NCBI GenBank assembly: GCA_020632555.1
Contig: JACKFI010000001.1
Location: 133,152 to 197,151, forward strand
Length of the DNA: 64,000 bases
Direction: 5' to 3'
Origin: Candidatus Omnitrophota bacterium
GTDB lineage: Bacteria; Omnitrophota; Gorgyraeia; Zapsychrales; JANLHA01
How positions within the stretch are numbered: the first letter of the stretch is position 1; every line of letters starts with the position of its first letter. The position numbers were made by a program, and so were the translations under genes. This document shows positions 5,622-39,084 of this stretch, piece by piece. The notes under the pieces were generated by a model. The model saw nothing but the letters and a program-made list of their open reading frames with translations, ran no database searches and had not been told where the DNA came from.

Positions 5622-5658
5622 ACCGTCCTCTGAATGTTAACCGGAAAGTTTCATCAAA

Positions 5659-25256: not shown

Positions 25257-25497
25257 GCTTGTGAAATTTCCTAAAGTTTTAATCACTTTTCCCCTAATTC
25301 TACGTTGACTTGTGCAACATGACAAGTGAATTTACGAGCCTGAAAACATCCCTTGATCATTCTTTTCTCATGACTATTAATAGTGGTTTTATTGTCAAAA
25401 GGCGGGATAGAACTATCTTCGATAGGTTCAGGTTATGAAAGGTCTAGCCTGATTCCCAACCTGTTTAATAACAATATGTTGCGTGATGGTCAAAAAA

Positions 25498-25515
25498 ATG
25501 TGCCAGATTTGTGCC
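25498..25515 (-). promoter_or_regulatory. sigma54-promoter-like motif, copy 1
   Basis: Minus strand reads ATAGGCACAAATCTGGCACATTT (GGCAC-N5-TGGCA, compared with consensus TGGCAC-N5-TTGCA). About 240 nt upstream of the PAS-LuxR start and 40 nt downstream of the fic stop. Confidence 0.4.
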
Positions 25516-25556
25516 TATCCTAAAGAGCTACTTTTTTTGATGATAAGCCGACCTGA

Positions 25557-26690
25557 TTAAGTGTCCTTCAATGCGTAACTTGTGCTGCGCCCACCCGCGG
25601 TTTCTTTTACTAAAATACCCTTTTCAACAAGATCGAGAATATCGCGCAACGCCGTGTCCTGTGAACACTGGGTGATCTTCGCCCATTTAGAAGAAGTGAG
25701 CTTGCCTTCAAAACCATCAAACAACTTATTGATGATCATCTTCTGCCTCTCGTTAAGGGATTGGGCAGGATGAGATTCCCAAAAACGCGCTTTCTTAAAT
25801 ACACCCGACAAAGTATTTTCAGTTGCATCCAACGCCCGACCCAAACAGCTCAGGAACCACACAAGCCATGGCGTAATATCAATGCCGTCTTTTGTGGCAC
25901 GGTTACTTTTCTGTGTTTTTTCAAGAATATCATAATAGGCATTCCGTTCCTGCCGGATCTGATTCGACATGCTGTAAAAACGCTCCCGGCTGCCGTCGGC
26001 ACGTGCCAGTTGCATATCGGCAATAGCCCGGGCAATTCTTCCGTTACCATCATCAAAAGGATGAAGTGTCACAAACCACAAATGCCCAATACCAGCTTTG
26101 AGCACAGGATCTAAATCCTTTGTGAGCGAAATCGAAGTGTTAAACCATTTCAGAAATTCCTTCATTTCACTTTTAAGACGGTTGGCCTGCGGTGCTTTAT
26201 AATGAACCTTCTCCCGGCCGATAGGACCAGACACAACTCTCATGGGACCATGCTTATCGTCGCGCCAATCAGCCACTGTAATTTTATGCATTCCGCTTCT
26301 ACCGGTTGGGAATAAACTGGCATGCCAGCCAAACATTCGATCCTGCGTAAGGGGCTTGTCAAATTTCTGTGTGGCATCGAGCATCATTTCCACCACTCCA
26401 TCCACATGACGATCAGAAGGCACAAGTCCACCGATGTCCATGCCCAGCCTGCGTGCAATGGATGACCGCACTTTGGCAGGGTCAAGAATCTCACCTTCAA
26501 TTTCACTACTTTTTAAAACATCAAGGGTGAGAGTCTGCAGGATTGCCTCGGAACGCAAAGAAAAACCCAATGCTTCCATTCTTCCAATCAGTCGCCCTTG
26601 GCGATTGCGGACAGTCCCCAAGATAGACGCGACCTTTTCGTGATCCCATGTCAATTTAGGCCAAATGGTTAATTCATGAATGTATTTCAT
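25557..26690 (-). CDS. Fic/DOC family protein (AMPylase-type) with N-terminal DUF4172-like region and C-terminal winged helix
   Basis: 377 aa. Fido motif HPFDDGNGRIARA. N-terminal WPKLTWDHEKV. C-terminal ..ALRDILDLVEKGILVK. Confidence 0.9.
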   Translation of the reverse strand: MKYIHELTIWPKLTWDHEKVASILGTVRNRQGRLIGRMEALGFSLRSEAILQTLTLDVLKSSEIEGEILDPAKVRSSIARRLGMDIGGLVPSDRHVDGVVEMMLDATQKFDKPLTQDRMFGWHASLFPTGRSGMHKITVADWRDDKHGPMRVVSGPIGREKVHYKAPQANRLKSEMKEFLKWFNTSISLTKDLDPVLKAGIGHLWFVTLHPFDDGNGRIARAIADMQLARADGSRERFYSMSNQIRQERNAYYDILEKTQKSNRATKDGIDITPWLVWFLSCLGRALDATENTLSGVFKKARFWESHPAQSLNERQKMIINKLFDGFEGKLTSSKWAKITQCSQDTALRDILDLVEKGILVKETAGGRSTSYALKDT

Positions 26691-26918: not shown

Positions 26919-27866
26919 TTATAATCGATCTGAATATTGTGAGATTGTACTTAAAATTTCATCAAACGATATTTGCCCCTGATAATACAATGTTGCAGTT
27001 TTTAGGCACTCCTTCTTAAATTGATCTCTTATCTTCGTATCTTTCAGCAAAAAAGCCTCCTGCTTTGCAATAGGAAACTTTTGATCTGCGACGGGAAATC
27101 TCTTCTTCTTATGCTCGTTGTATTCTGAAGTCCCGATAAACTTCTGAACCGTATCGTTTTGCAAAAGGCAAGCAACATCGTAATAATGCCGGATAAAATT
27201 AGCAGGCATCTTTCCGGACTCTTGCAGTTTCCGAAACTTTGTTGCGATTGTTTGCAATTTCTCAACAAACGTATAACCCAGATGATAGCACAAAACACCA
27301 CCAGCTCTATTATCCTTAACCTTGAGTCCATTCTGCAATGCAAAATCAAGCGCCCAAGAGCTAATATCCATCGGGCTGTTGGGCGTCACCTCATCAAACC
27401 CAACTTCGAGCAATACACCCTCTTTTATGCCGCCGGCAACAGAGAAAGCACTTTTGTAAAAAAGCCGTATTCCACCGCTAAAGAATTTTTCATTATCAAA
27501 TTCCGTGTCACGAATAATTCTTTGTATCCCATCAATATTAATTTTCTTCGCCAACCAGTCATAGTATTTCTTACGGCTTGCACAATGATCTGGTTTTATA
27601 TGGTTTGGACCTGTCTTGACTTCCATGCCGGCAGGCGGTTCGATACGAATATCAATGTCCTCAGAAAATCGATGAATAATGCCATACCCTTTTGAGAGCG
27701 ACGTACCTCCTTTGAGCTCGAAGGTAAATCCCCCTTGTTGCAAACCATATAAAACATGCATGATCCAATAATCTTTTTCAACCAGACTACGCTCTATCTT
27801 TTTTTCATGCTCTACAGCTCGCAAGAGTTCTTTAAATTCAGCGTGGTTATGTAAATAATCAGACAT
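26919..27866 (-). CDS. AbiEii/AbiGii nucleotidyltransferase toxin (type IV TA, DUF1814)
   Basis: 315 aa. LKGGTSLSKGYGIIHRFSEDIDI nucleotidyltransferase motif. 8-nt overlap with the upstream antitoxin-like gene. Confidence 0.85.
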   Translation of the reverse strand: MSDYLHNHAEFKELLRAVEHEKKIERSLVEKDYWIMHVLYGLQQGGFTFELKGGTSLSKGYGIIHRFSEDIDIRIEPPAGMEVKTGPNHIKPDHCASRKKYYDWLAKKINIDGIQRIIRDTEFDNEKFFSGGIRLFYKSAFSVAGGIKEGVLLEVGFDEVTPNSPMDISSWALDFALQNGLKVKDNRAGGVLCYHLGYTFVEKLQTIATKFRKLQESGKMPANFIRHYYDVACLLQNDTVQKFIGTSEYNEHKKKRFPVADQKFPIAKQEAFLLKDTKIRDQFKKECLKTATLYYQGQISFDEILSTISQYSDRL

Positions 27867-28452
27867 GTGCTAAGTTTCCCTCTAACATCCATTGATTAAA
27901 TAAAGTTTTTGTTCTTTCTCCTGCATAAACATTGACCGCGCGCTTCATCTGAGATTCTGGTTCTTTCAGCACTTTTTCCTTAACACTTCGCAAAACACTT
28001 TCCCGATCTTCCGCTAACTCATTTAAATTGTTCAGTAAATCAACCAGTAGAAATTCTTCGGACAATTCTCTGGGGAATTTATGCTTTAATCGAAAATCAA
28101 ACTCCTTTCCACCAAGAACGAATTGACCATGCCGTTTATGATTATAAACAAAGCGCGTATTGTACAACTGCGTAGTTCCCACTCCTAAAGAATTGTAAAG
28201 GTTAGGCGAGGTTAAAAGAAAATCATCGCTTTTTAAGAAGGCCCGTACCAATTTTTCGTCTTCCGGTGGCACAGAGCCAAACGAGGCTTTTGCAGGATAA
28301 TAGTACAATCCCTGTGACATTTTTTGCAAGGTCCCCTCATCAACCAGTTGCTTTAAATGCCGATCAACCGCGGTTGACCATTGCTCCAGATCAACCCTGC
28401 GATAAACCTGTCCCGGTTTTAAATGCCTTTTAAGTTCGCTAAGCGCGTCCAC
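27859..28452 (-). CDS. AbiEi-family antitoxin-like protein (wHTH)
   Basis: 197 aa. N-terminal wHTH-like HLKQLVDEGTLQKMSQGLYYYP. Positioned directly upstream of AbiEii and overlapping it. Confidence 0.65.
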   Translation of the reverse strand: MDALSELKRHLKPGQVYRRVDLEQWSTAVDRHLKQLVDEGTLQKMSQGLYYYPAKASFGSVPPEDEKLVRAFLKSDDFLLTSPNLYNSLGVGTTQLYNTRFVYNHKRHGQFVLGGKEFDFRLKHKFPRELSEEFLLVDLLNNLNELAEDRESVLRSVKEKVLKEPESQMKRAVNVYAGERTKTLFNQWMLEGNLAHV

Positions 28453-28568: not shown

Positions 28569-29918
28569 CTAATTGTGATGATTAGCCATCATCCAATCAA
28601 GCACCCCTTTAACACGACGCCAGACAGTAGCCATCTCATGGGCATAATACCGAGCCTCATCCTCTCCGCCCATAGATAAATAATCAGGAATCGCCTTCAA
28701 ACGGAAACCTTTGACAAGATAATTAGGAATAAATTTATTTGTTTTAAAAGCGCGCGCCATCATTTCCCTTGATTGCAACGAATCACCTTCTTTAATAAAC
28801 CACACCAACGCCCTCGTGTAGCACCATGGCGCGGAGCAATCATTCGCATACGGCCCATCCTCCATGAATTGTTCAAGTTCCGCAAATTTCGATCTCTTTG
28901 CCAGATAGCCTGCAAGAACATAGCGCATTCCCTGATTGTCATTCTCATTCAAACACAGCATATCGCGACACACCTCAATCGCTTCGGCATGCTTACCAAG
29001 CTCCCATAAAATTTCCTGAAGTCCAGCCAAAGCGCGCATATACGGCCTTGATTCCAGCAAAGCCCAAAATTGTCCGGCATTCTCTATAAAAAATTTTTGC
29101 CCTAATGCTTCTTTGCCAACCCTAACCCCTTGTAAAAAGTAGGTTGCGGCTTCGTCAAGATACTCTGCTGAATCACCTAAAACAACGTAGGCATCCGTGC
29201 AATTCGGATCAAGATTTAAAGCTTTTTGAGCCAAACCAACACGCTCATCAGAATCAGCCCGCTCCCATGCTTCATAAATCAACTCTTGAGCGATACGTGC
29301 AGGCGACGCATCTGCGAGCTCAGAGGCGGCTTCACCCAATTCTCTTCTTAAGTAAGTCTTCAAATCTTCCTCTTTTGGAATACCCCAAAGAATATTTCTA
29401 AGATCTGGTGGGACCTTGTAACCGTAAAGTGCCGAAAACGTCTCGATCGGAAACCCGTATTTCAGCGCTCCCATGGGCATGCCATTCAATTGAGCGGCTA
29501 CGACGGCCGCAGGATCCTCGTCCTTCTTAGCTTTACTCAGCCACCAGCGGGAATTTAAGACCATCTGGTTCATGGAGGCAAGCACACTGCGATCATTGGC
29601 TTTATCGACGACAATCTCGTCACAGCCTTGCAAAACTTTCTGCATCATTTCACTTGGACAATGCGTATGAAACATAGCACGCGAAAGCCCTTTGTAAAAA
29701 AGTTCACGAAGGTTTTTGAGATCCTTTTTCTTCACTCCCGCGACAAGGAAAGAAAACAGCGTCGATCGATGAGTAAAAAGCAGCTGCTTCTTGTGCTCAT
29801 GATAAAATAAATTCACGAACCATTCTGAAACAGATGGACTATCAGTGTTCAAAGATAAAGACTGAGGCTTGATACCGCTAAACAATAAAAACTTTTGTGT
29901 CCCACGTAAAAGAATCAT
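28569..29918 (-). CDS. Hypothetical protein with C-terminal TPR-like helical repeats
   Basis: 449-aa ORF, coherent with no internal stops. C-terminal half is helical-repeat-like (AQELIYEAWERADSDERVGLAQKALNLDPNCTDAYVVLG). No function assignable. Confidence 0.55.
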   Translation of the reverse strand: MILLRGTQKFLLFSGIKPQSLSLNTDSPSVSEWFVNLFYHEHKKQLLFTHRSTLFSFLVAGVKKKDLKNLRELFYKGLSRAMFHTHCPSEMMQKVLQGCDEIVVDKANDRSVLASMNQMVLNSRWWLSKAKKDEDPAAVVAAQLNGMPMGALKYGFPIETFSALYGYKVPPDLRNILWGIPKEEDLKTYLRRELGEAASELADASPARIAQELIYEAWERADSDERVGLAQKALNLDPNCTDAYVVLGDSAEYLDEAATYFLQGVRVGKEALGQKFFIENAGQFWALLESRPYMRALAGLQEILWELGKHAEAIEVCRDMLCLNENDNQGMRYVLAGYLAKRSKFAELEQFMEDGPYANDCSAPWCYTRALVWFIKEGDSLQSREMMARAFKTNKFIPNYLVKGFRLKAIPDYLSMGGEDEARYYAHEMATVWRRVKGVLDWMMANHHN

Positions 29919-29994
29919 TTTTTAATAACCTAACGTTGTTAAATCACCTACAAGCGCCCTCGTTTTGTCATACACTGCGTAATGGTCAATAAAA

Positions 29995-30012
29995 ATGTGC
30001 CAGATTTGTGCC
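29995..30012 (-). promoter_or_regulatory. sigma54-promoter-like motif, copy 2
   Basis: Minus strand reads TGTGGCACAAATCTGGCACATTT (TGGCAC-N5-TGGCA). 77 nt upstream of the 449-aa ORF start. It shares a further ~17 nt (TTGACCATYACGCA) with copy 1. Confidence 0.45.
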
Positions 30013-30017
30013 ACATG

Positions 30018-30443
30018 CTATATGAGTTTTTCCATTTTTTCTATAGCAGCATAGTAAATACTCAAAAACTTATCTTTTATTGTAAAAAGCTCGTCCATCA
30101 TTTTTTCAGAATGGGACTTATTCTCATATTCAAAAGGATAAAACCGAATACCCTTTTTATAAAATCCGCCTTCATAATTAATTTGAAAAAAATAATCTCG
30201 GTCAACAAGAGATCGATGCTTACTCAAGTTACAAAAACTCCTCACGTAGCCAAACTCATCTGAGTCAATCCATTCTCCTATAGCATTCTCTAAATCCGGA
30301 GCGATACCTTTCAATTGTTTACTCACTTTATAAATTGTAACTTTGCTTCGGGGCAGCGTAGAAGATAGGATTACCATATTGATTACCTGTGCGCAAATAT
30401 CAGGAGCCAAAGAGAATATTTCCAAACGTGCCATATTCAGCAC
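30018..30443 (-). CDS. Hypothetical protein
   Basis: 141-aa ORF beginning 103 nt downstream of rtcA on the same strand. No recognisable motif. Confidence 0.4.
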   Translation of the reverse strand: MLNMARLEIFSLAPDICAQVINMVILSSTLPRSKVTIYKVSKQLKGIAPDLENAIGEWIDSDEFGYVRSFCNLSKHRSLVDRDYFFQINYEGGFYKKGIRFYPFEYENKSHSEKMMDELFTIKDKFLSIYYAAIEKMEKLI

Positions 30444-30546
30444 AAACCTGCCGAAGGACGAGCAAGTCCGCCAGAAGCAAATGAACCCGACACTCCTGGA
30501 AATGTTCTCTTTTACTCTCTTTTGAGTTTCTTTAGAATTTTATTTT

Positions 30547-31560
30547 TCATATTGAAACGTGGCATTGCCCATTGCCAAGATCAACAAAATTAATTTTAAC
30601 ATCCATGAACTTCTCAATAATCTCGGCATTGGTAAGGCTGTGCAGCGTCAGGGCCGTAGTTTTAAATTCTCCACCTTTGGCCAAAGCAAACGGGATCAAA
30701 AGCTGATCAGCCAAATACGTCCCCACCGGAGCATCGATTTGTAAATATTTCTTTACTTGTTCAATGGCTTCATGCGCTACTGCTTCCGCGCTTTTACGCA
30801 ATTCTCCGAAACCCACAAACATTTCCCTGATATTTTCACTATCAACCTCAACCGTAAAAATATTTCCCGGACCTTGAGAATCCATGGCTTGAAAAATCTC
30901 ACTTTGATCATCTTCCAGAGAAAAATGTTTTTTAGCGACCGCGATTTCTCTGACAGCAACATTGCCAGGGATTTGGGCAAAGAGTGATCTTGCCTTTATG
31001 CCTTTAAGTTTGCCGCGCTCTAACAAAAATATGGGTTTTAATTTCTTTATAGGCACAATTTTAGCTTCGATCTTTCCGCCGCCGGCCGGGTAAAAACCGT
31101 GGCGATGCAAAGTCACTTCTAAATCCACACCCATTTGTTTGAGAATCGGCGCAAAAACTATTTTTAAAAAATCCACCGGGGGTGCGAAAGGATTATGCGT
31201 TCCTCCTTCGATCACAATTATGGATGGTGAGTCCGCGATCATCAAAGCCGGTAAAATGGTTTGCAAAACAAGAGTCGCGCTACCCGCCGTCCCAACTGAA
31301 AAATGGTATTCCCCTGCGGTGACTTCTCCCGGATAGAAAGTCAGCTTTTGCGAGCCGATAACATTCCCATCGACCTTTGCATCTCCAATCTTCGTAGCTG
31401 CTTCGACAGCCGTTAAATGCTGGCGTAAAAGCCCCGGCTTACTACGCTTAGCGCGGATATTCTCAATCGTAAACGGCTCGCCCGTTACTAAGGACAACCC
31501 GAGAGCTGTCCTTAGTATTTGGCCCCCGCCTTCACCGATTGAACCGTCGATTTTAATCAT
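30547..31560 (-). CDS. rtcA: RNA 3'-terminal phosphate cyclase RtcA
   Basis: 337 aa. MIKIDGSIGEGGGQILRTALGLSLVTGEPFTIENIRAKRSKPGLLRQHL, HRHGFYPAGGG, YLADQLLIPFALA. ATGA overlap with the upstream SPFH gene. Confidence 0.92.
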   Translation of the reverse strand: MIKIDGSIGEGGGQILRTALGLSLVTGEPFTIENIRAKRSKPGLLRQHLTAVEAATKIGDAKVDGNVIGSQKLTFYPGEVTAGEYHFSVGTAGSATLVLQTILPALMIADSPSIIVIEGGTHNPFAPPVDFLKIVFAPILKQMGVDLEVTLHRHGFYPAGGGKIEAKIVPIKKLKPIFLLERGKLKGIKARSLFAQIPGNVAVREIAVAKKHFSLEDDQSEIFQAMDSQGPGNIFTVEVDSENIREMFVGFGELRKSAEAVAHEAIEQVKKYLQIDAPVGTYLADQLLIPFALAKGGEFKTTALTLHSLTNAEIIEKFMDVKINFVDLGNGQCHVSI

Positions 31561-32306
31561 TTGACCTCTTTGGTTCTCACCGGAACGACTTGACCCGATA
31601 CTCCTAAGACAATCGTACTTCCCGGTGATTGTAAAGCTCGCAATTGCAATAACGCAGGATTGTCTTCCAACACTTTAGAAACATTGGCCAAATTGCGCAA
31701 AGACGCGGTTTCTCCGCGGGCACGTTCCAATGCCGCCAACCCTTCTTTTTGCGCCTCAACAACCTTAGCAAAGATTTTCTTTAATTCACCCGGAAACATA
31801 ACGTCCTTAACGCCGATGAGCGTAATTTTTAAACCGATTTCCTTCGCTTTGGCAACCGTCGCTTCCATCAACTTTTGATTAATCGTTGCTCGCTGTGCCA
31901 AAACCTCATCGATCGCTAAAGAGCCAATGATGTCACGAACTGCCAATTGTACCACCGCGTATAAAGCCTCGGTGTAACTAGCGATCTTATTAACGGCGAT
32001 GTTGGCATCTTCGATCTCATATTGCGCCGTAATGCTGACCTTTAAGGACACATTGTCCGAACTTAAGACTTCCTGCCCCGGGATCGTGATGACTCGAGGA
32101 CGAACATCGATCTTAACGATGATCGTATTCTGAGAAAACTTAAAATAACGACCCGGTTCCAAAATTCCGACAAATTTTCCCTTGCGATATTTTAAACCCT
32201 TCTCATATTCAAGAATAGTGACAAAATATTTTGCACTAAAAACCGCAATGACGACCCAACCGATAAAGCCGAGCACCGCCATGCTTACTAATGTTGATAA
32301 TGTCAT
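31557..32306 (-). CDS. SPFH/band-7 (stomatin/slipin-like) membrane protein
   Basis: 249 aa. N-terminal TM helix. SPFH core VDVRPRVITIPGQEVLSSDNVSLKVSITAQYEI, then a coiled AKVVEAQKEGLAALERARGETA segment. Confidence 0.85.
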   Translation of the reverse strand: MTLSTLVSMAVLGFIGWVVIAVFSAKYFVTILEYEKGLKYRKGKFVGILEPGRYFKFSQNTIIVKIDVRPRVITIPGQEVLSSDNVSLKVSITAQYEIEDANIAVNKIASYTEALYAVVQLAVRDIIGSLAIDEVLAQRATINQKLMEATVAKAKEIGLKITLIGVKDVMFPGELKKIFAKVVEAQKEGLAALERARGETASLRNLANVSKVLEDNPALLQLRALQSPGSTIVLGVSGQVVPVRTKEVK

Positions 32307-32602
32307 TTCTTTCTCCTTTTGTTTTTAAAAGTTCTGTCTTAAAAAAATTGTAGAATCGCAGTGGAGGTTGTTGACCTGCAAGACGGCTTTTCTACGAGCA
32401 ACTTTCTTAAGACAGAACGTGGGGATTTGAACCCCTCGGATTACTCCTTGACCAGGGCGAGCGTTTATCTGCAAAATGATATGGCCGATGCCATGTCATC
32501 GCACTGGATTCGCTCGCATATTTTTTTATCCCAATTTTTGCTAAAGGATTTTGCTTTTGGTAAATTGGGATTACGCAAATTTTTTCTATCGAAAATCTGC
32601 CT
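32307..32602 (-). ncRNA. Structured non-coding spacer between rtcB and the SPFH gene, with a tRNA T-arm-like motif (candidate ncRNA or tRNA remnant)
   Basis: No ORF. On the minus strand: 10-bp hairpin ATCCCAATTT/AAATTGGGAT (32528-32571); 7-bp stem GCGAGCG/CGCTCGC (32457-32517); exact T-arm GGGGTTCAAATCCCC (rc of 32421-32435); 12-bp stem GTTCTGTCTTAA/TTAAGACAGAAC (32331-32342 with 32407-32418) followed by TTTT. Confidence 0.35.
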
Positions 32603-34120
32603 TTAAGCTGCTCCTTTTAAACTTTTATCTTCATCTTTAATAACAAACCGCGCTTTTAACTTTGCCACAGGACTCGCCAGCCCGGCGCTCTCGATTGATC
32701 TCAAAACTTCTTTGAAATCTTTATAAGCCGCAGGGGCTTCATCCAAAGGATATTGCCGGCAATTAGACAGAATGTCATTGTCTTTGAAACTCTGGTCGAC
32801 TTCCTGTTGGACCAAAGTTCTCATCGCCGCCTTCCGTCCCAACGCACGACCAGCGCCGTGATTAACGCTGTAACAACTTTTTTCTGCGCCCGGATCAGCA
32901 ACCATAACAACCGAGCCATCTTTAGGATTACCCGGAAGCAAAATCGGATGTCCGGTATCAGCAAACAAAGTGTCCTTTAATGCAAAGTGTCCCGCCGGGA
33001 AAGCCCGCGTCGCCCCTTTGCGGTGGACCCAGACTTTTTGATTGTCCACCACTTCCTGCCGGGCAATGTTATGGCTGATAAAATAAACCAACTGCCCTTT
33101 TGTTCCAGGAACCACCTCTTGAAACGCTTCTAAAACCAAAGCATTGATTAACAGATGATTGATCGTCGCAAAATTAGCGCCCAAGGCCATGTCATTCAAG
33201 TAGGCATCTGCTTCGGGCGTTCCCAAGGGCGCATACACCAACTCCTTATCCTCGCCCGGCAATGGAATATCCCAAACCGAGAATTTATTTTGCAAGGTCT
33301 TGAATTGATGCTGCGCTAAATGATAACCAAAACCGCGCGAACCGCAATGCGAGAGAAAGGCTACCTTGTTATCTTGAAGCCCAAAGACTTCGGCCACCTT
33401 CTTGGCGCGCTCATCATTCTCGATTTCAACAACTTCGCATTCTCCAAAGTGATTTCCACCACCATAAGAACCCAATTGCGAAATCTTTTTCTCAAAATTA
33501 TCGAACAATCCCGTATCGATCAAAAATTGCAATCTTTGACCTAAGGCATCGGCTGTTCCATCATGCCCGACGTGAAAAGCATCTTCGCAACGCAAAGCCC
33601 AATCCACAGGAATGCCTAATTGCTCGCAGACCGAAGCCGAAGCACCCTGGATAGCGACTTGTTTACCCAGGATTTCATTGACCCGTCTCGCCTTCTTAAC
33701 TGAACGCTGCCCCTGCCCCGCACCCGTCGGGGTTCTTTCAAGGATCGCGTTAATTAAAGCCCGACGGGTGCTTTGATCAATGACGGCATTTGCCGGCAAA
33801 TCCATTTGCAATAAACTCATCGAACACTTAATGTCCACACCAACCGGACCAGGATATATATGAGTAGGTGACACCAGAACACAACCAACCGGTGCGCCGT
33901 ACCCGCAGTGAGCATCTGGGTTCAATACTAAATCGGTAACCCCGGGAGCGCCGCGAGAATTTAAAGCTTGTTGAATACAAAGGTCATCAAAAGTTTTTCT
34001 GATCGCCTCGGTTCCAATCACCGTGATTGGTTTTCCTTCACTATTATGCATAGGAAGAAAACCCGTTGCTTCCCCGGTGGCATGAATTCTTGAAGTTGAT
34101 TCGTTCGTTTGTTCTGACAT
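32603..34120 (-). CDS. rtcB: RNA 3'-phosphate ligase RtcB
   Basis: 505 aa. DAHCGYG, HCGSRGFGYHLAQH, ISHNIARQE, VHRKGATRAFP, NHGAGR. Confidence 0.95.
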   Translation of the reverse strand: MSEQTNESTSRIHATGEATGFLPMHNSEGKPITVIGTEAIRKTFDDLCIQQALNSRGAPGVTDLVLNPDAHCGYGAPVGCVLVSPTHIYPGPVGVDIKCSMSLLQMDLPANAVIDQSTRRALINAILERTPTGAGQGQRSVKKARRVNEILGKQVAIQGASASVCEQLGIPVDWALRCEDAFHVGHDGTADALGQRLQFLIDTGLFDNFEKKISQLGSYGGGNHFGECEVVEIENDERAKKVAEVFGLQDNKVAFLSHCGSRGFGYHLAQHQFKTLQNKFSVWDIPLPGEDKELVYAPLGTPEADAYLNDMALGANFATINHLLINALVLEAFQEVVPGTKGQLVYFISHNIARQEVVDNQKVWVHRKGATRAFPAGHFALKDTLFADTGHPILLPGNPKDGSVVMVADPGAEKSCYSVNHGAGRALGRKAAMRTLVQQEVDQSFKDNDILSNCRQYPLDEAPAAYKDFKEVLRSIESAGLASPVAKLKARFVIKDEDKSLKGAA

Positions 34121-34163
34121 TTGTTTTTCCCTTATATTGCCCCTTTCCTTTATCGTTGCTTAA

Positions 34164-34192
34164 AGCATACCCTATCCAAAGCCAAATGTCAA
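34164..34192 (-). promoter_or_regulatory. sigma70-type promoter candidate for rtcB
   Basis: Minus strand reads TTGACA (rc of 34187-34192), a 17-nt spacer, then TATGCT (rc of 34164-34169), about 45 nt upstream of the rtcB ATG. Confidence 0.4.
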
Positions 34193-34243
34193 ATTTATTT
34201 TTATTTTCTTGTATAAATGTTTATCCTGTGATATATTTATACC

Positions 34244-35842
34244 ATGAATACAAAAATTGCTATTGGGCTACTTGGGACAACCCTCGATCAAGGGAAAGAT
34301 GAAAATCGCTGGAACAAGTGGCGTCCGACCATCTCCCTTTTTCAGCACGAAGACCTCTTGATCCATCGTTTTGACTTGCTATACGAAAAAAAATTTCAAG
34401 ATCTTGCCGAGCAAGTTATTTCTGACATCAAATCCATCTCCCCTGAAACCAGAGTTGTGCCCCACATTATTGAAGTGAAAGACGCGTGGGATTTTGAGAA
34501 TATGTACAGCGTCCTTTTTGACTTTGCCCGCAATTATCCTTTTAATATAGAGAAAGAAGAATATCTCATCCACATCACCACCGGATCGCACGTAGCGCAA
34601 ATTTGTGAATTTCTTTTAACTGAAAGCCGATACTTCCCAGCTAAACTCATCCAGACCTCCCCTTCCAAAACCGAAGGCTTTAAAGGCGAATACCGCATCA
34701 TTGATCTTGACCTTTCTAAGTACGACAACATCGTCAAGCGATTCCGTAAAGAACAAAGAGAAAATTTATCATTTCTTAAATCCGGGATAGCGACTCGCAA
34801 TAGTAAATATAATCGGCTCATTGAACAAATCGAACGCGCGACGATCAACTCTAATGCCCCGCTTCTTCTCACCGGCCCGACCGGTGCCGGAAAATCACAT
34901 CTTGCCCGACAAATTTTTGAACTCAAAAAGATTCACAACCAAATCAAAGGCCAATTTATCGAAGTCAACTGCGCGACTCTGCGCGGAGAAATGTCGGCCT
35001 CCACCCTTTTTGGGCATGTCAAAGGAGCATTTAACTGCGCCATCAAAGACCGAATGGGATTATTACGCGAAGCCAATGAAGGGGTTTTATTTCTCGACGA
35101 GATTGGAGAATTAGGGATCGATGAGCAAGCCATGCTTCTTAAAGCATTGGAAGAACAAAAATTCTTGCCCATCGGCAGCGACGAGGAAGTTGAAAGTAAA
35201 TTTCAGTTAATTGCCGGGACGAATTTAGACCTTGGCATTGAAGTTGATAAAGGCAATTTTCGCACCGACCTCTACTCCCGAATCAATCTTTGGACATTCT
35301 CATTGCCTTCTCTTAAGGACCGTCCTGAAGATATCGATGCCAACATTGAATTTGAATTAGAAAAGTTTTCACAAACACACAATATCAACGCCACCATCAA
35401 TAAAGAAGCCAAAGATGCCTATTTGAAATTTGCGACATCAGAGAAAGCATTATGGAAAGCGAACTTCCGTGACTTGAATGCCTCCATCATTCGCATGACC
35501 ACATTAGCCGACGGCGGGAGAATCAATATTGAACTTGTGCAGGAAGAAATTGACCGGTTAAATAAACTTTGGAAGAGAAGCGAAGATACTCAAGAAGCGG
35601 AGATACTCGAACGTTTACTAACTCAAGAACAACTGCAAAAGCTAGACCGGATTGAAAAAATCCAATTGATTGAAGTTATAAAGATTTGCCGCGAATCACG
35701 CAACCTGTCTGAAGCCGGCCGCATTTTATACAATGCTTCCCGCACACTCAAATCAAGCACCAATGACGCCGATCGACTTAAAAAACTTCTCGCCCGCCAC
35801 GATCTATCCTGGGACCAAATTAAAAACGCTTCCGTACTATGA
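34244..35842 (+). CDS. rtcR: RtcR: CARF-domain / AAA+ bacterial-enhancer-binding-type regulator of the rtc operon
   Basis: 532 aa, divergent from rtcB. N-terminal ~185 aa RtcR-type CARF region. Walker A LLTGPTGAGKSHLA. LFLDEIGELGIDEQAMLLKALEE. C-terminal HTH. The L1 loop reads GAFNCA (35024-35041) instead of GAFTGA. Confidence 0.9.
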   Translation: MNTKIAIGLLGTTLDQGKDENRWNKWRPTISLFQHEDLLIHRFDLLYEKKFQDLAEQVISDIKSISPETRVVPHIIEVKDAWDFENMYSVLFDFARNYPFNIEKEEYLIHITTGSHVAQICEFLLTESRYFPAKLIQTSPSKTEGFKGEYRIIDLDLSKYDNIVKRFRKEQRENLSFLKSGIATRNSKYNRLIEQIERATINSNAPLLLTGPTGAGKSHLARQIFELKKIHNQIKGQFIEVNCATLRGEMSASTLFGHVKGAFNCAIKDRMGLLREANEGVLFLDEIGELGIDEQAMLLKALEEQKFLPIGSDEEVESKFQLIAGTNLDLGIEVDKGNFRTDLYSRINLWTFSLPSLKDRPEDIDANIEFELEKFSQTHNINATINKEAKDAYLKFATSEKALWKANFRDLNASIIRMTTLADGGRINIELVQEEIDRLNKLWKRSEDTQEAEILERLLTQEQLQKLDRIEKIQLIEVIKICRESRNLSEAGRILYNASRTLKSSTNDADRLKKLLARHDLSWDQIKNASVL

Positions 35843-35934
35843 TCAATCCCTAATTTAATCATCCGTGATAGTTTATTTGAGAATTTATTGTAACCCCAAG
35901 AAGTGGCGTCAGGGGGGATTTTTGGTGCCAAAAC

Positions 35935-35952
35935 ATGTGCCAGATTTGTGCC
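35935..35952 (-). promoter_or_regulatory. sigma54-promoter-like motif, copy 3
   Basis: Minus strand reads TATGGCACAAATCTGGCACATGTT. Lies 25 nt downstream of the HEPN gene and points antisense into the 3' end of rtcR. No downstream minus-strand gene. Confidence 0.35.
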
Positions 35953-35976
35953 ATAGCAAAATGCCATCTTTTTGTA

Positions 35977-36384
35977 TCACTTTCCCATCATCTCTCTGAC
36001 CCATTGATAAACCCGGGTAGTCACCTTGACCATTTCATCAGCATCGGCTCGATTAACACTACGGCATTCATACTGGATCACATTCTTTCGGGCAATGATT
36101 TTGCGTAATTGCTTGGCTTTTTCAGCAGCGCCATCAATCGGCAATTTTGAAACCAGCTCACAGACATCCAAGTGATCTTGGGAAATTGACCGAACACCTT
36201 TTTCATTCACACAAATCGCATCCGCCGAAGAAATCGCACATTGCAATGCCAACGTTGCCGCGGCGTTCCAATTCTCAGCATGAAAAGCAATGAGCATTTG
36301 ATCGTAATTGTCCGATGCCTTTTTCAGATATTCACTAGCGGCAGATTTGCTCTCTTCTCTCACCTTCATTTCACGCGCTGTCAC
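35977..36384 (-). CDS. HEPN-domain protein (HepT-like toxin of a HEPN/MNT module)
   Basis: 135 aa, all-helical. Rx4-6H-type motif RSISQDH. Lies immediately downstream (1-nt gap) of the MNT gene. Confidence 0.7.
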   Translation of the reverse strand: MTAREMKVREESKSAASEYLKKASDNYDQMLIAFHAENWNAAATLALQCAISSADAICVNEKGVRSISQDHLDVCELVSKLPIDGAAEKAKQLRKIIARKNVIQYECRSVNRADADEMVKVTTRVYQWVREMMGK

Positions 36385-36385
36385 A

Positions 36386-37015
36386 TCACACCTCCAAAGG
36401 TTCTTTTCCGTATAAAACTGAATAGGATTTCATTAATGTTGATATCGGCGGAAGATTCTTTTTAAGACGTTCACGAAATTCAGCCGCTGACTTTACATAA
36501 AAATCCAAATGAATACCAAAATATGACTTAAACCGATCCGCAATGCTTGAATTAAAAACCTCCGCAACCTGCTTCGTATGGCTTGCCTTATCGACAACAA
36601 CGGCCACATCAACATCGCTTTTTTTATTTGCTGTACCTTGCTGAACACTTCCATAAAGGATCAAAGAAACAATATCCGTCTTGATCCCGCCTTTCTTTAT
36701 CTCCTCCAAGAGCAGATCGCGGATCTCTCCCTTATAATTACTCTCCGCCTCGAACATCGGGCGAATAATTTTTTGAACGATGCGGTCCTCTTCATTCAAA
36801 GAATAGATATGCTGTTTTCCGATGACTTCGACATTAAGAATATTGTGTGCCTGAAGATTCTTTAATGATTCGTGGGTAGCAGGCACAGAAAAACCAGACA
36901 ATTTAGCAATCTCGCGGCCCGTGGCTCTTAATCCTTTACGGATAGTCAGAACACGCAGGATGGCCACCGCTGACTGCGTCCCAACAATTTCACTGATTTG
37001 GAAAGGAGAATCCAT
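36386..37015 (-). CDS. Minimal nucleotidyltransferase (MntA-like antitoxin) with N-terminal winged-helix domain
   Basis: 209 aa. N-terminal wHTH (GREIAKLSGFSVPATHESLKNLQAHNIL). NTase motif LILYGSVQQGTANKKSDVDVAVVV. Confidence 0.8.
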   Translation of the reverse strand: MDSPFQISEIVGTQSAVAILRVLTIRKGLRATGREIAKLSGFSVPATHESLKNLQAHNILNVEVIGKQHIYSLNEEDRIVQKIIRPMFEAESNYKGEIRDLLLEEIKKGGIKTDIVSLILYGSVQQGTANKKSDVDVAVVVDKASHTKQVAEVFNSSIADRFKSYFGIHLDFYVKSAAEFRERLKKNLPPISTLMKSYSVLYGKEPLEV

Positions 37016-37020
37016 AAACT

Positions 37021-37058
37021 TTACCTAACATATGTAAGGTTAACCTAACACGTAAAGT
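37021..37058. promoter_or_regulatory. Candidate operator upstream of the MNT/HEPN pair
   Basis: TTACCTAACATATGTAAGGTTAACCTAACACGTAAAGT: imperfect palindrome CCTAACAT/ATGTAAGG plus a repeated ACCTAACA, starting 6 nt upstream of the MNT start codon. Confidence 0.3.
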
Positions 37059-37346
37059 ATAACATTGTTTCCAGAACTGTCAAATTTATACTGCTCCACG
37101 GTGATATACCGTATTGTGTGTAAATTAACTGTCATCCCCGAAATTTTTTATCGGGGAACCATTTAAAAGTAGTAAAAAAAGGCGTATCTTTCTGTTTGGA
37201 AATGTTTAACCGGGTTGACCCATGTCAGCCCAGAACAGAAAGGATACGCCCATGTACCAAACATTTGATACTTTAAAACATCGCGGAGCCGGGTCAAGGA
37301 TTTCATTAATTATACCCAACCGAAAGATTTTTGGATCGATATTAAT

Positions 37347-38471
37347 ATGCATCTTAGAAAACTAACCAAAAGTTTTATTGAAGAAACTCTCGACGAAGAA
37401 ATGACCCAATATCAACAACGAGAAAAACATCAGCGGTTAAAGAAAATGATCGATTACCGAAACGGACATTATCAACGCAACCTCGATACGACCATCGGCC
37501 CTCTTGATAATATTGCCGTTCCGCGTTCACGAAGCGGACTATTTAAACCTACGGTTTTTAAGCGTTACCAAAGACGCCAAGAAGCTGTTAACACCGTCAT
37601 CTGCAATGCCTTCCTGCGCGGCATATCCACCCGTGAAGTCGCTGGCGCTTTAAAACCAATCCTTGACACCAACATCTCCGCTTCCGCCGTCTCACGAATA
37701 ACAAAATCTTTAAATGCCCAAGTTAAAGCATTCCATCAACGTCAACTGCTCGACGAATATCAGTTTTTATTCCTAGACGGTATTGCTATCTCAGTCAAAG
37801 GAGCGCTTAAAGCCAAGAAAATTCTTGTCCTAACTGCTTATGGCATTACGATCTTCGGTAAAAAAGAGCTCATCGCCTTTAGAATCTCTAACAGCGAGTC
37901 AAATCAAGCCTGCGAAGGATTTTTAAATGATCTATTTAAACGCGGCCTGCAAGGCAAAAACCTTAAATTGATTATCACCGACGGGTCCAAAGGCTTTATT
38001 AACGCCGTCGACCTCGTTTACCCTCACGTCAAACATCAGCGCTGCTGGGTTCATAAACTTCGTAATTGCACTAAACATCTTAAGAAATGCGATATTGATG
38101 CATTTAAAAATGATGCCCGCAAGATTTACAATGCCTCGACTCATCGAGATGCTGTCGCGGCTTTTAAGAGTTTACGCCAACATTGGGTCAAAGATTATCC
38201 GCAAGTTGTCAAACTCATCGAACAGGATTTAGATAGTCTTTTGGCTTTTTTAGAAATTCCAATCAAGGAACAATACCGCGAATTTATCCGTCGTCGAATT
38301 CGTACAACCAACATCATCGAGCGTTCATTCCGGGAAATCAGACGCCGCACCAGACCCATGGGATGTTTTGCAAATATTGATAGCGTCAGCAGGATTATTT
38401 ATGCGATATTTAATCGCTTAAACACCAAATGGCAGGAGAAACCTTTAACCCAATTTACACAATTTATTTGA
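37347..38471 (+). mobile_element. IS256-family (mutator-type) transposase gene; IS ends not delimited
   Basis: 374 aa. FLFLDGIAISVK, IITDGSKGFINAVDLVYPHVKHQRCWVHKLRN, TTNIIERSFREIRRR (DDE region). N-terminus somewhat short for the family. I could not identify convincing terminal inverted repeats. Confidence 0.8.
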
Positions 38472-38730: not shown

Positions 38731-38804
<74 letters not shown>

Positions 38805-38827
38805 GCTATTCTTAGTAATAATATCTT

Positions 38828-39040
38828 GAGGTAGCCGCGGCACTTCCTCGGGTATTAAGCGTCTGTCGGCCTCGCCACGGTGGGCTCGGCACTCCTTCGC
38901 ACTTTACGTGCTCAGTCGCCCGCTTTGGTACTAAATACATCTTAATATAACGGCGGCACTTCCTCGGGCATTAAGCGTCTGTCGGCCTCGCCACGGTGGG
39001 CTCGGCACTCCTTCGCACTTTACGTGCTCAGTCGCCCGCT
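38828..39040. repeat. GC-rich tandem repeat, two ~96-bp copies with 116-bp period, immediately 5' of tRNA-fMet
   Basis: CGGCACTTCCTCGGGYATTAAGCGTCTGTCGGCCTCGCCACGGTGGGCTCGGCACTCCTTCGCACTTTACGTGCTCAGTCGCCCGCTTTGGTACTA occurs at 38828 and 38944, nearly identical. A degenerate related stretch lies at ~38585-38690. Confidence 0.85.
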
Positions 39041-39084
39041 TTGGTACTAATGCTATCTTTTGATACTATAAATATCTTTAAATC

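Follow-up and report, generated by a model that had tools for sequence, protein, structure and literature searches.

An RtcR-controlled RNA-repair operon with a slipin gene and its structured RNA leader in a Candidatus Omnitrophota genome

The 64,000-nucleotide stretch of DNA analyzed here, hereafter the window, belongs to the genome of a Candidatus Omnitrophota bacterium and contains a block of RNA-repair genes. All genes named in a first-pass annotation of this DNA were recovered in their places with Pfam, NCBIfam, and PADLOC, and the repair block is composed as follows.

30547-31560, minus strand: rtcA, RNA 3'-terminal phosphate cyclase (Pfam RTC 272 bits plus RTC_insert; NCBIfam equivalog 439 bits, cut-off 352)
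31557-32306, minus strand: SPFH/Band-7 'slipin' membrane-scaffold protein, 249 aa (Pfam Band_7 106 bits)
32603-34120, minus strand: rtcB, 3'-phosphate/2',3'-cyclic phosphate to 5'-OH RNA ligase, 505 aa (Pfam RtcB 343 bits)
34121-34243, minus strand: divergent control region between rtcR and rtcB, with a sigma70-like box inside
34244-35842, plus strand: rtcR, transcriptional activator with CARF, AAA+ sigma54-interaction, and HTH domains (Pfam RtcR (CARF) 269 bits, Sigma54_activat 161 bits; NCBIfam RtcR equivalog 755 bits, cut-off 650)

The profile searches upheld the identities proposed for rtcA, rtcB, the RtcR CARF domain, and Band_7, by Pfam in all four cases and also by NCBIfam for rtcA and RtcR. 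As the annotation had described, the CARF/AAA+ gene rtcR on the plus strand is divergent from rtcB on the minus strand, rtcB and rtcA are separated by a 296-nt spacer (32307-32602) and the SPFH gene, and the slipin stop codon overlaps the rtcA start codon in an ATGA (GTCAAATGATTAAA). The N-terminus of the slipin was hydrophobic and transmembrane-like on inspection of the sequence, and a database protein titled 'slipin family protein [Candidatus Omnitrophica bacterium]' is 100% identical to it. The three core genes and their divergent arrangement are those of E. coli rtcR/rtcBA, but the window has two extra elements between rtcB and rtcA, and its RtcB, which is 87-96% identical to that of the related loci L001, L006, and L008, is of a long 505-aa type that scored under the cut-off of every NCBIfam RtcB model. 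A further difference from E. coli lies in the control of the operon: RtcR carries GAFNCA at the position where sigma54 activators carry GAFTGA, and a sigma70-like promoter, TTGACA-17-TATGCT at 34192-34164, is conserved in relatives, while no -24/-12 element with correct spacing was found in the region between rtcR and rtcB. Because RtcR lacks GAFTGA and the promoter is sigma70-like, rtc regulation may here depart from the scheme that holds in E. coli and Salmonella.

The spacer consists of three parts, an 82-nt insert, a 192-nt structured RNA, and a 22-nt linker, with the following elements.

32521-32602, minus strand: 82-nt genome-specific insertion between the rtcB stop codon and the conserved RNA, forming two hairpins
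32329-32520, minus strand: slipin-associated structured RNA, the slipin leader (fold, covariation, models R1 and R2)
32512-32516 with 32458-32462, minus strand: P1 of the RNA, enclosing hairpin domain A
32470-32503, minus strand: hairpin domain A of the RNA, within P1
32448-32457, minus strand: junction CCCUGGUCAA of the RNA
32438-32447, minus strand: P2, small hairpin of the RNA
32421-32435, minus strand: T-arm GGGGUUCAAAUCCCC of the RNA
32331-32418, minus strand: P4, long helix of the RNA, with a conserved inner hairpin UGCAGG-N5-CCUCC at 32363-32380
32307-32328, minus strand: linker containing the slipin gene's Shine-Dalgarno sequence, AAGGAG, predicted mostly unpaired

The annotation had spoken of an ORF-free structured spacer, and the structured part of this description is borne out by a predicted fold of -90.5 kcal/mol, compared to -59.9 +/- 4.6 kcal/mol for shuffled sequences (z = -6.6; 0 of 200 shuffles as good). 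The spacer is not free of ORFs, as an 81-codon antisense ORF (32361-32606) overlaps it, and it can be regarded as a structured element only over the 192 nt of the RNA; its first 82 nt are an insertion that is absent from the relatives L001, L006, L008, and L089 and occurs once in the window and in none of the other loci examined. No reading frame was open across the homologues of the RNA, and in L006 and L093 the RNA region contains stops in all six frames. The RNAalifold consensus of 11 homologues comprises 59 pairs, of which 38 show compensatory changes on both sides, and 96.3% of the cells are paired, a value inflated by the fitting of the alignment to the model; slid controls gave such changes in 10-14 pairs and approximately 45% pairing, and none of 500 shuffles reached the observed pairing and covariation. 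Two covariance models, R1 and R2, scored the RNA of the window at 222 and 196 bits, respectively. A conserved structured RNA of around 190 nt is therefore real, and the annotation was right to describe a module of RtcR, RtcB, and RtcA in which rtcB is set apart from rtcA by an SPFH gene and a genuine structured RNA. The RNA has four helical domains, among them a canonical tRNA T-arm, after which comes a long closed hairpin, and is not a cloverleaf; neither Rfam 15, including its tRNA and YrlA models, nor ARAGORN gave a match to the 192 nt, and tRNA mimicry is only partial. Since the RNA starts shortly after the rtcB stop codon, 82 nt past it in the window and 8 nt past it in close relatives without the insert, it is presumably co-transcribed with rtcB.

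Model R2 located the RNA 13-28 nt upstream of the slipin start codon and on the same strand in all 15 loci of the slipin subfamily, which come from several phyla (the window, L001, L008, L006, L089, L090, L003, L004, L092, L093, L095, L047, L058, L010, and L094), with scores from 196 down to 36.5 bits and full-length matches at E values from 1e-48 to 4e-8. The same model gave no match in 76 rtcB loci without this slipin (~803 kb, being the 867 kb searched minus the 64-kb window). The RNA thus belongs to the slipin gene and not to rtc, and RNA and slipin travel as one unit. To regard the RNA as an rtc element was therefore mistaken: it forms the slipin gene's leader and is also present at slipins without an rtc neighbour. 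In L003, L004, L092, L094, and L095, amounting to roughly half of the independent lineages sampled, no repair gene was found within the fetched 4-8 kb flanks, indicating that the unit also has a role outside Rtc. Its position is between rtcB and rtcA in this Omnitrophota clade, and in other phyla it lies between rtcR and rtcB, beside the repair nucleotidyltransferase RlaP, or alone.

A comparison of rtcB neighbourhoods, suggested along with the annotation, showed that the insertion of an SPFH gene recurs in several phyla, although in just 4 of 80 rtcB loci from other species (L010 from Methylacidimicrobium, L047 from Planctomycetales, and L058 and L083 from Luteolibacter). In Elusimicrobia (L093) the unit lies alongside RlaP and a kinase, and in Burkholderia multivorans (NZ_CP143551, L096) the order is rtcR / tRNA-like / SPFH - rtcB - RlaP. 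Altogether, independent recurrence was seen in Omnitrophota, Planctomycetota, Verrucomicrobiota (in two arrangements), an unclassified bacterium, Burkholderia, and Pseudomonas. The P. aeruginosa rtc locus, PA4581-PA4585, likewise encodes an SPFH protein, PaFlo8 (PA14_60630/PA4582), there in a cultured organism (PMC13086221, PMC8619066); by the published description PA4582 is located beside rtcR and before rtcB, whereas the slipin of the window lies between rtcB and rtcA. Deletion of PaFlo8 caused no phenotype in the assays done.

The annotation had taken the arrangement to be undescribed, which did not hold, given these P. aeruginosa, B. multivorans, and rtcB loci and a published prediction. 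As cited in Wang et al. 2018 (10.1101/312249), Burroughs and Aravind predicted in 2016, from genome comparisons, RtcB operons that contain a Band-7 protein along with a b7a-tRNA, short for 'band 7-associated tRNA', and the prediction, still described as such in 2018, covers redundancy of this module with Rsr/YrlA. The RNA-slipin module corresponds to what was predicted there, a Band-7 equivalent of the accessory module of Ro60 and Y RNA. The layout is therefore known; the RNA of the window is absent from Rfam 15. As far as the published system is described in that citing paper, the window shares with it an SPFH/Band-7 gene within an rtcB operon controlled by RtcR, a conserved non-coding RNA that lies immediately upstream of this gene and has a T-arm of the tRNA type, occasional co-occurrence with Rsr/YrlA (here L006 and L047), and frequent presence of RlaP in the operon (L001, L006, L008, and L096). 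By the same description, the published RNA is very similar to a genuine tRNA, which sets it apart from the 192-nt, four-domain RNA without cloverleaf found here, and the published Band-7 type has the order RNA-slipin-rtcB instead of rtcB-RNA-slipin-rtcA. The tRNA-like RNA of Burkholderia scored 44 bits with the Rfam tRNA model and was called as a tRNA by ARAGORN, neither of which applies to the RNA of the window; model R2 gave no match in L096, and the slipins of the two loci are ~32% identical.

Compared to the Salmonella-type operon rsr-yrlBA-rtcBA (Rfam RF02553), the window likewise has RtcR divergent from an rtcB...rtcA operon and carries a candidate RNA-binding scaffold and a tRNA-mimicking RNA as extra cargo, and as in YrlA the T-arm is directly followed by a closed acceptor-like hairpin. 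The scaffold differs from Ro60 in being a membrane protein of another fold, and the RNA differs from YrlA in lacking the Ro-binding stem and in not matching the RF02553 model. The proposal that scaffold and RNA take the place of Ro60 and Y RNA was right about the parallel, an idea published in 2016 as cited in 10.1101/312249, but not about replacement. In the close relative L006, rsr (Ro60), three YrlA RNAs (68, 62.7, and 41 bits), and the RNA-slipin unit are found in one operon, and in L047 rsr/YrlA and the unit likewise share an operon, so the modules are additive. Searches of the window for an rsr gene and with the YrlA RNA model found neither; rsr/YrlA was lost in the lineage of the window.

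The locus is thus an RtcR-controlled RtcB/RtcA RNA-repair operon with a second accessory module, a membrane-anchored slipin gene with a 5' leader RNA, and the interpretation of the annotation is supported in part. The best explanation as a whole is probably, though with considerable room for doubt, that this slipin-RNA module acts as a ribonucleoprotein platform. RNA nicked by metal-independent RNases has 2',3'-cyclic phosphate and 5'-OH ends. Such fragments would activate RtcR through its CARF domain, as established for Salmonella, where tRNA fragments with cyclic-phosphate ends are activators (PMC7790460), and the operon transcript would then provide RtcB and the RNA along with the slipin and RtcA, the translation of rtcA being coupled to that of the slipin gene. 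The slipin may oligomerize at the membrane and bind its own tRNA-mimicking leader, either attached or cut free, and the platform might recruit, present, or shield tRNA-like substrates for RtcB and RtcA, as is thought for Ro60-YrlA. Through the same mimicry, the slipin could also restrain its own translation.

The constant placing of the RNA a short way ahead of the slipin start codon is equally compatible with a purely cis-acting leader that sets the expression of slipin and the coupled rtcA, without any trans role in RNA repair, be it riboswitch-like, protein-binding, autoregulatory, or a processing or stability element for tRNA-handling enzymes such as RNase P. We consider this possible, but a good deal less probable. 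It would account for the constant strand, the short distance with the Shine-Dalgarno sequence in between, and the failure of the model searches to find the RNA apart from a slipin gene. Promoters are present immediately upstream of the RNA both where the unit stands alone and where it adjoins rtcR (sigma54 promoters TGGCAC-N5-TTGC in L010 and L058; -10-like boxes TATAAT in L092 and CATAAT in L095), and the strong conservation of nucleotides in the junction and loops (GGU, UUCRA, UGCAGG...CCUCC) is aptamer-like. However, the Shine-Dalgarno sequence is not consistently sequestered in the predicted folds (0.5-0.9 unpaired in the window and close relatives), the RNA is not followed by a terminator-like expression platform, and the conserved CCUCC, although similar to an anti-Shine-Dalgarno sequence, is paired within a covarying hairpin. 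Moreover, the true tRNA-like gene at the same position in Burkholderia looks like a processed RNA and not like an aptamer.

It is unlikely that the slipin and its leader are mere passengers, a housekeeping cassette that in one Omnitrophota lineage came to lie between rtcB and rtcA and has no functional link to repair. The nearest slipins outside the clade (L003 and L004, 67-69% identical) do stand alone in unrelated housekeeping neighbourhoods with the same RNA, and the scarcity of SPFH genes among the rtcB loci of other species fits this too, but it is at odds with the independent recurrence across phyla, including Burkholderia, Pseudomonas, and the Elusimicrobia unit beside RlaP. Furthermore, the slipin of the window lies inside the operon, overlapping rtcA, and the insertion has been kept in relatives despite divergence of the slipin to 74-92% identity with that of the window.

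The surroundings of the repair block contain the following toxin and defence genes and border repeats.

25420-25545: border repeat, further copy
25557-26690: Fic
26919-27866: AbiEii
27859-28452: AbiEi
29960-30045, minus strand: border repeat, second copy, at the opposite flank of the rtc block
35900-35985, minus strand: border repeat with the core TGGCACAAATCTGGCACA, separating the rtc block from the HEPN-MNT block
35977-37015, minus strand: HEPN-MNT pair (Pfam), a neighbour and not a conserved part of the rtc module
35977-36384, minus strand: HEPN (Pfam HEPN 27 bits)
36386-37015, minus strand: wHTH-MNT nucleotidyltransferase (Pfam NTP_transf_2 36.5 bits; MntA 32.8 bits, under the cut-off)

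The HEPN pair indeed adjoins rtcR, AbiE (26919-28452) and Fic follow further along, and the module does sit within a variable region rich in toxin and defence genes. In L001 the border repeat is fused to the 3' half of tRNA-Met, and an IS256-family transposase is present in the region; the rtc block is part of a region of variable cassettes beside tRNA-Met, and the other cargo of this region (HEPN-MNT, AbiE, and Fic) differs between related genomes. The HEPN, MNT, AbiE, Fic, and DUF6933 genes of the window had no homologue next to rtc in L001, L006, or L008, which speaks against the claim that the repair unit is wired into toxin genes; only the general hot-spot context recurs in relatives. As a class, HEPN RNases produce RNA ends with a 2',3'-cyclic phosphate. 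Despite this property, the abutting of HEPN-MNT and rtcR, and the presence of AbiE and Fic within 5 kb, a repair unit specifically wired to these toxins, with RNA and scaffold replacing Ro/Y RNA, is the least probable reading and very unlikely, given the missing homologues, the repeat scars of serial integration at tRNA-Met that part the blocks along with the transposase, the joint presence of both modules in L006 and L047, and the weak match of the HEPN protein, a putative RNase. Defence genes near rtc, which would also fit such wiring, do occur in relatives, namely SIR2-DUF87 and AbiE in L001 and methyltransferases in L008.

The rtc gene set that the first-pass annotation had described in the window was borne out by an ORF map and profile searches. 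The locus holds the elements that define an Rtc operon, an RtcB ligase, an RtcA cyclase and a divergent CARF-AAA+ regulator RtcR (Pfam, NCBIfam and ORF map), and in addition a gene for an SPFH/Band-7 membrane-scaffold protein (slipin). All Pfam and NCBIfam matches of the rtc genes were above their cut-offs except for RtcB, which matched four NCBIfam RtcB models and stayed below the cut-off of each. The genes are as follows.

30547-31560, minus strand, rtcA
31557-32306, minus strand, SPFH/Band-7 slipin gene (Band_7, 106 bits)
32603-34120, minus strand, rtcB
34244-35842, plus strand, rtcR, divergent from rtcB

Within the operon, the slipin gene follows rtcB after 296 nt, and the sequence confirmed that the slipin stop codon and the start codon of rtcA share an ATGA overlap. 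A public protein identical to this slipin is named as coming from Candidatus Omnitrophica. The observations of the first-pass annotation were confirmed, and its interpretation was supported in part. One of these observations was a structured rtcB-slipin spacer (32307-32602), and indeed these 296 nt fold much better than shuffled controls (z = -6.6). The spacer was aligned with those of four related contigs (L001, L008, L006 and L089; slipins 74-92% identical to that of the window), and this divided it into three parts. The 82 nt after rtcB (32521-32602) are unique to the window; this insert forms two hairpins between the rtcB stop codon and the conserved RNA, and is absent in every relative. 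That it could be a repeat or mobile element was rejected, as neither the window nor any fetched locus has a second copy. The following 192 nt (32329-32520, minus strand), here called the RNA, are conserved above the level of the flanking protein genes, and the final 22 nt hold the ribosome-binding site. In the relatives, the RNA follows the rtcB stop codon at a distance of 8 nt; its RNAalifold consensus comprises 59 pairs in four parts.

Parts of the RNAalifold consensus structure
P1: 5-7-bp helix enclosing a bulged hairpin
P2: short hairpin, loop usually GNRA-like
T-arm: hairpin with the tRNA T-arm sequence GGGGUUCAAAUCCCC
P4: long helix, inner hairpin UGCAGG-N5-CCUCC almost invariant

Over 11 homologues, standard pairs were found in 96.3% of the cells, a somewhat flattering value because the alignment was fitted to the model, and 38 of the 59 pairs showed changes on both sides. 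When the pairing partners were slid by 1-3 columns as a control, ~45% were paired and both-side changes occurred in 10-14 pairs, and none of 500 shuffles reached the observed pairing values. Despite the model-fitted alignment, the count of compensatory pairs is still convincing, and the predicted RNA, with its clear boundaries, is robustly supported by covariation. Other identities of the spacer could be ruled out. A small protein gene on either strand is excluded by the lack of a conserved reading frame. An intrinsic terminator or attenuator between rtcB and slipin was ruled out as well; the sole terminator-like match in the spacer is the small domain-A hairpin, and no U-tract follows P4 in the homologues. 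A D-arm pairing GCUC/GAGY around CCUGGUCAAG was dismissed since it is lost in L006, L008 and L089, and a GGA/UCC hairpin covaries in its place. Finally, ARAGORN and Rfam ruled out that the spacer is a tRNA, a YrlA RNA or a member of any Rfam family. ARAGORN found no tRNA in the RNA, Rfam 15 gave only chance or T-arm matches at the window RNA (E <= 1 over 8 kb, E <= 10 on the spacer alone), and whole-locus Rfam scans of 11 other RNA-bearing loci, including L001, L006, L008, L003 and L092-L095, found nothing at the RNA. The Rfam tRNA model did not match the spacer alone even at E <= 10, the similarity being confined to the 15-nt T-arm. This arm, which is like the T-arm of mascRNA, is the sole resemblance of the RNA.

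A first covariance model, built on the first six RNA sequences, matched immediately before two slipin genes (loci L003 and L004; 142-145 bits) that are located away from any rtc gene. The RNA was present at the same place in all four further slipin homologues picked for diversity (L092, Omnitrophota; L093, Elusimicrobia; L095, Obscuribacterales; and L094). With a second model, based on 11 sequences, distant matches reached clear significance, each of them the top-scoring match in its locus and just upstream of the slipin gene.

Distant matches of the second covariance model
L047 (Planctomycetales), 55.3 bits
L058 (Luteolibacter), 42.7 bits
L010 (Methylacidimicrobium), 38.7 bits
L094, 36.5 bits

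Taken together, the covariation-supported RNA directly precedes the slipin gene in 15 out of 15 loci, and the second model had no match in the 76 rtcB loci without this slipin subfamily (~803 kb, the 64-kb window subtracted). A two-block motif scan for the RNA in viral contigs gave no matches, and a 20-base motif scan of metagenomes gave a single one, L091, which is unrelated and arose by chance. The RNA ends 13-28 nt ahead of the slipin start codon in every case, and near-consensus -10 boxes are present just upstream of the RNA in L092 and L095. This fixed spacing and the promoters directly upstream show that the slipin transcript has the RNA as its 5' leader; RNA and slipin make up one mobile two-part unit, which in the clade of the window is located between rtcB and rtcA. 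The RNA was detected in Omnitrophota, Elusimicrobiota, Obscuribacterales/Melainabacteria, Planctomycetota and Verrucomicrobiota. A weak model match (14.5 bits) was seen in Methylobacterium bullatum (L097, 4843-4970), immediately before the gene of a distant slipin (32% identical). The CUGCAGG...CCUCC hairpin is kept in this match, so that the P4 domain may reach the Alphaproteobacteria, with L097 as a possible remnant of the RNA. In the Elusimicrobia locus L093 (1531-4477), the RNA-slipin unit is followed by a 530-nt gap without an RNA call, and then by the repair nucleotidyltransferase RlaP and an AAA_33/Zeta-like kinase; no RtcB is found within the fetched region, and the unit stands in a different repair-type context. 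In L004, a tRNA-Ala(CGC) gene (8802-8876) lies 43 nt downstream of the standalone slipin with its leader RNA, which may be a coincidence or a link to tRNA.

Since slipins with 67-69% identity stand alone, it was first suspected that the linkage of SPFH genes to rtc is limited to one clade. This view was overturned by a survey of 80 rtcB loci, a plasmid search and the literature. The survey covered other species, mostly Verrucomicrobiota and Planctomycetota, with RtcB proteins 70-75% identical, and revealed an SPFH gene between rtcR and rtcB in four of the 80 loci (L010, L047, and the Luteolibacter loci L058 and L083), and rsr, the Ro60 gene, upstream of rtcB in approximately half of them. The P. 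aeruginosa SPFH protein PaFlo8 (PA14_60630) has been described as 'embedded within the rtc locus' (2026, PMC13086221), and PA4582 and PA4584 are listed as unknown genes of the P. aeruginosa rtc operon (PMC8619066). A protein search with the L058 slipin, aimed at PA4582, gave no Pseudomonas protein among the 120 matches listed. A class consisting of RtcB, Band-7 and a Band-7-associated tRNA-like RNA (b7a-tRNA) was predicted by Burroughs and Aravind in 2016, according to the passages on this class in Wang et al. 2018 (10.1101/312249), which add that b7a-tRNA sometimes adjoins Rsr, that YrlA sometimes adjoins Band-7, and that b7a-tRNA was unvalidated as of 2018. The window shares with this class a Band-7/SPFH gene adjoining RtcB (Band_7, 106 bits) and a conserved non-coding RNA beside it. 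However, in the same passages b7a-tRNA 'strongly resembles an authentic tRNA', whereas the window RNA does not, as it has no cloverleaf and tRNA models remain silent. A counterpart that does resemble an authentic tRNA is found in Burkholderia multivorans (L096, replicon NZ_CP143551), where the order is rtcR, a sigma54-like promoter, a T-arm minihelix, a tRNA-like gene, SPFH, rtcB and RlaP.

RNA region of the Burkholderia locus L096
4091-4345, promoter-to-RNA region upstream of SPFH-rtcB-RlaP
4240-4272, acceptor/T-arm minihelix
4276-4345, tRNA-like gene with a shortened anticodon loop

On the Rfam tRNA model, this tRNA-like gene reaches 44 bits; ARAGORN calls it 'tRNA-Phe(aaa)', and the region 4091-4345 carries no annotation in the record. 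Presumably, this gene is the published b7a-tRNA, here in a cultured pathogen. The slipin-RNA covariance model gave no match in L096. The distinction between the window RNA and b7a-tRNA is based on the description of the latter in Wang et al. 2018 and on the comparison with L096. The window system belongs, as a variant, to a class already known from computational prediction, and its operon layout is not new; the suggestion that the layout was undescribed had to be abandoned in view of the 2016 prediction (via 10.1101/312249) and the SPFH-rtc linkage in PaFlo8, L096 and four of the 80 rtcB loci.

The RNA and the scaffold had also been proposed to take the place of Ro60 and Y RNA. In the window, a tblastn search with the Rsr of L006 finds nothing, and the region 29500-37500 has no YrlA (RF02553) match at E <= 1. 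Yet in L006 itself, a close relative with an 83% identical slipin, the order is rtcR, rsr, three YrlA, rtcB, RNA, slipin, rtcA and RlaP, and the tandem YrlA copies, with RF02553 scores of 68, 62.7 and 41 bits, are just below the Rfam gathering score. The Planctomycetales locus L047 (CAZTQK010000218, 3354-7497) comprises rsr, the RNA, slipin, eight tRNA genes, YrlA copies (two strong and two weak) and rtcB. The presence of both modules in L006 and L047 means that Ro60/YrlA and RNA-slipin coexist, which contradicts the proposed replacement. The window, L001 and L008 have lost rsr and YrlA, and the window also RlaP. The eight tRNAs of L047 (Gln x2, Arg x2, His, Pro, Leu x2) are apparently normal; such an array inside an RNA-repair operon is unusual. 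In L006, rsr (4269-6233) is called as two ORFs of 207 and 294 aa in different frames, which suggests a frameshift; the gene may be a decaying pseudogene, or the assembly may be at fault.

RtcB and RtcA act on RNA ends with cyclic phosphates. RtcR-type regulators respond to tRNA fragments with such ends (PMC7790460). Beyond the established gene identities, RNA structure, RNA-slipin linkage, leader position and repeated recruitment into repair operons, we propose that the slipin oligomer would bind its tRNA-mimicking RNA, and that this slipin-RNA complex could assist repair as a cofactor, a decoy or a platform at the membrane, parallel to Ro60-YrlA. The main rival explanation is that the RNA acts purely in cis, as a leader. 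Its fixed distance from the slipin start codon supports this, and the position and conserved core of the RNA would fit a riboswitch or another cis-regulatory leader, in which a conserved aptamer is joined to an expression platform that alternately hides the Shine-Dalgarno sequence or folds into a terminator. However, neither consistent Shine-Dalgarno masking nor a terminator is predicted, and a tRNA-like gene is found at the same position in Burkholderia L096. The two explanations are compatible, as autoregulation by molecular mimicry would combine a cis-acting leader with slipin binding. Our broader interpretation, which we put forward tentatively and consider rather doubtful, is that the RNA represents an uncatalogued broad family ('slipin leader RNA'), different from the cloverleaf b7a-tRNA, which marks SPFH-scaffold ribonucleoproteins with a tRNA-elbow mimic. 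Operons for RNA repair would have recruited this unit again and again, in several phyla, to sense damaged tRNA or to act as its decoy or membrane platform. If this is true, bacteria would have in the slipin ribonucleoprotein a counterpart of vault particles, which contain small RNAs and a Ro-related protein, and in which an SPFH-like domain is part of the major protein.

To our knowledge, few membrane proteins of still unknown bacterial function are as widespread as SPFH/slipin proteins, and we know of no established mechanism for the bacterial RtcB accessory factors (Ro60/Y RNA; Band-7 plus RNA). The noteworthy part of the locus is the RNA rather than the operon layout. Spanning several phyla and absent from Rfam, it is a candidate new Rfam family, for which a working covariance model and clear boundaries provide concrete material. 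Across phyla, the RNA is strictly linked to one slipin subfamily, which makes the 2016 prediction directly testable, and the occurrence of the unit with rtc, with rsr/YrlA, with RlaP or alone offers natural 'experiments'.

Regulators that act through sigma54 contact it with a GAFTGA loop, and the corresponding -24/-12 promoter reads TGGCAC-N5-TTGC. In RtcR of the window, residues 261-266 are GAFNCA, and in the close relatives GAFNGA, whereas in other phyla the loop is GAFTGA in 31 loci and GSFTGA in 11. A correctly spaced -24/-12 element, as sigma54 dependence demands, was looked for in the rtcR-rtcB intergenic region and none was found. Instead, a sigma70-like TTGACA-17-TATGCT is present upstream of rtcB (34164-34192) and conserved in L001, L008 and L006, the consensus being TTGACA-17-TAWGCT before rtcB (before rsr in L006). 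The GAFNCA/GAFNGA loops and this sigma70-like promoter without a -24/-12 element suggest that control by RtcR in the clade of the window may not go through sigma54. Canonical sigma54 promoters do occur in L010 and L058, just upstream of the slipin RNA.

The surroundings of the locus contain a HEPN gene and an MNT-type nucleotidyltransferase gene beside rtcR, and AbiEi/AbiEii and Fic genes farther on, together with the following features.

25420-25545, 29960-30045 and 35900-35985, all minus strand, border repeat of 40-90 nt with the core TGGCACAAATCTGGCACA...TTGACCATCACGCAAC
28569-29918, DUF6933 + TPR protein between AbiE and the rtc block (PADLOC candidate family PDC-S63, 65.6 bits)
30018-30443, orf141 (141 aa), after rtcA, where relatives have RlaP
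37347-38471, IS256/Mutator-family transposase between HEPN-MNT and tRNA-Met (Transposase_mut, 301 bits)
38731-38804, tRNA-Met

A type VII toxin-antitoxin system combines a HEPN toxin, with an Rx4-6H RNase motif, and an adjoining MNT adenylyltransferase antitoxin. The HEPN protein of the window scores 27 bits (cut-off 22) and contains the R-X5-H string RSISQDH (residues 65-71), a candidate for this motif, and the MNT protein has the GS...DVD nucleotidyltransferase motif, with an MntA score of 32.8 that is below the cut-off of 60. AbiEi (286 bits) and AbiEii (232 bits) form an AbiE pair according to PADLOC, their genes overlapping at 27859-27866. No Pfam, NCBIfam or PADLOC family was found for orf141, nor a homologue in the related loci, and RlaP is absent from the window. 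Nucleotide similarity to L008, L001 and L006 is confined to 30659-35953 (rtcA through rtcR), and the HEPN, MNT, AbiE, Fic, DUF6933 and orf141 proteins have no homologue in these three loci. Thus, of the suggested damage-sensing unit wired into a toxin island, the island setting stands, but the specific connection to the HEPN toxin finds no support, as the neighbours have no homologues in L001, L006 and L008. In L001 the equivalent slot holds SIR2-DUF87 and AbiE, and in L008 methyltransferases lie between tRNA-Met and rtcR. The border repeat bounds three blocks (Fic-AbiE-DUF6933, rtc, and HEPN-MNT-transposase), and is also present in L001 (10540-10750 and 15905-16030), where it is fused to a 3' half of tRNA-Met. 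These repeats look like att scars, pointing to serial integration of cassettes or islands at a tRNA-Met hot spot. The repeat core TGGCACAAATCTGGCACA...TTGACCATCACGCAAC resembles a sigma54 -24/-12 element with one mismatch. Immediately upstream of tRNA-Met, a 116-nt unit is tandemly duplicated (38813-39044), the copies being 91% identical.
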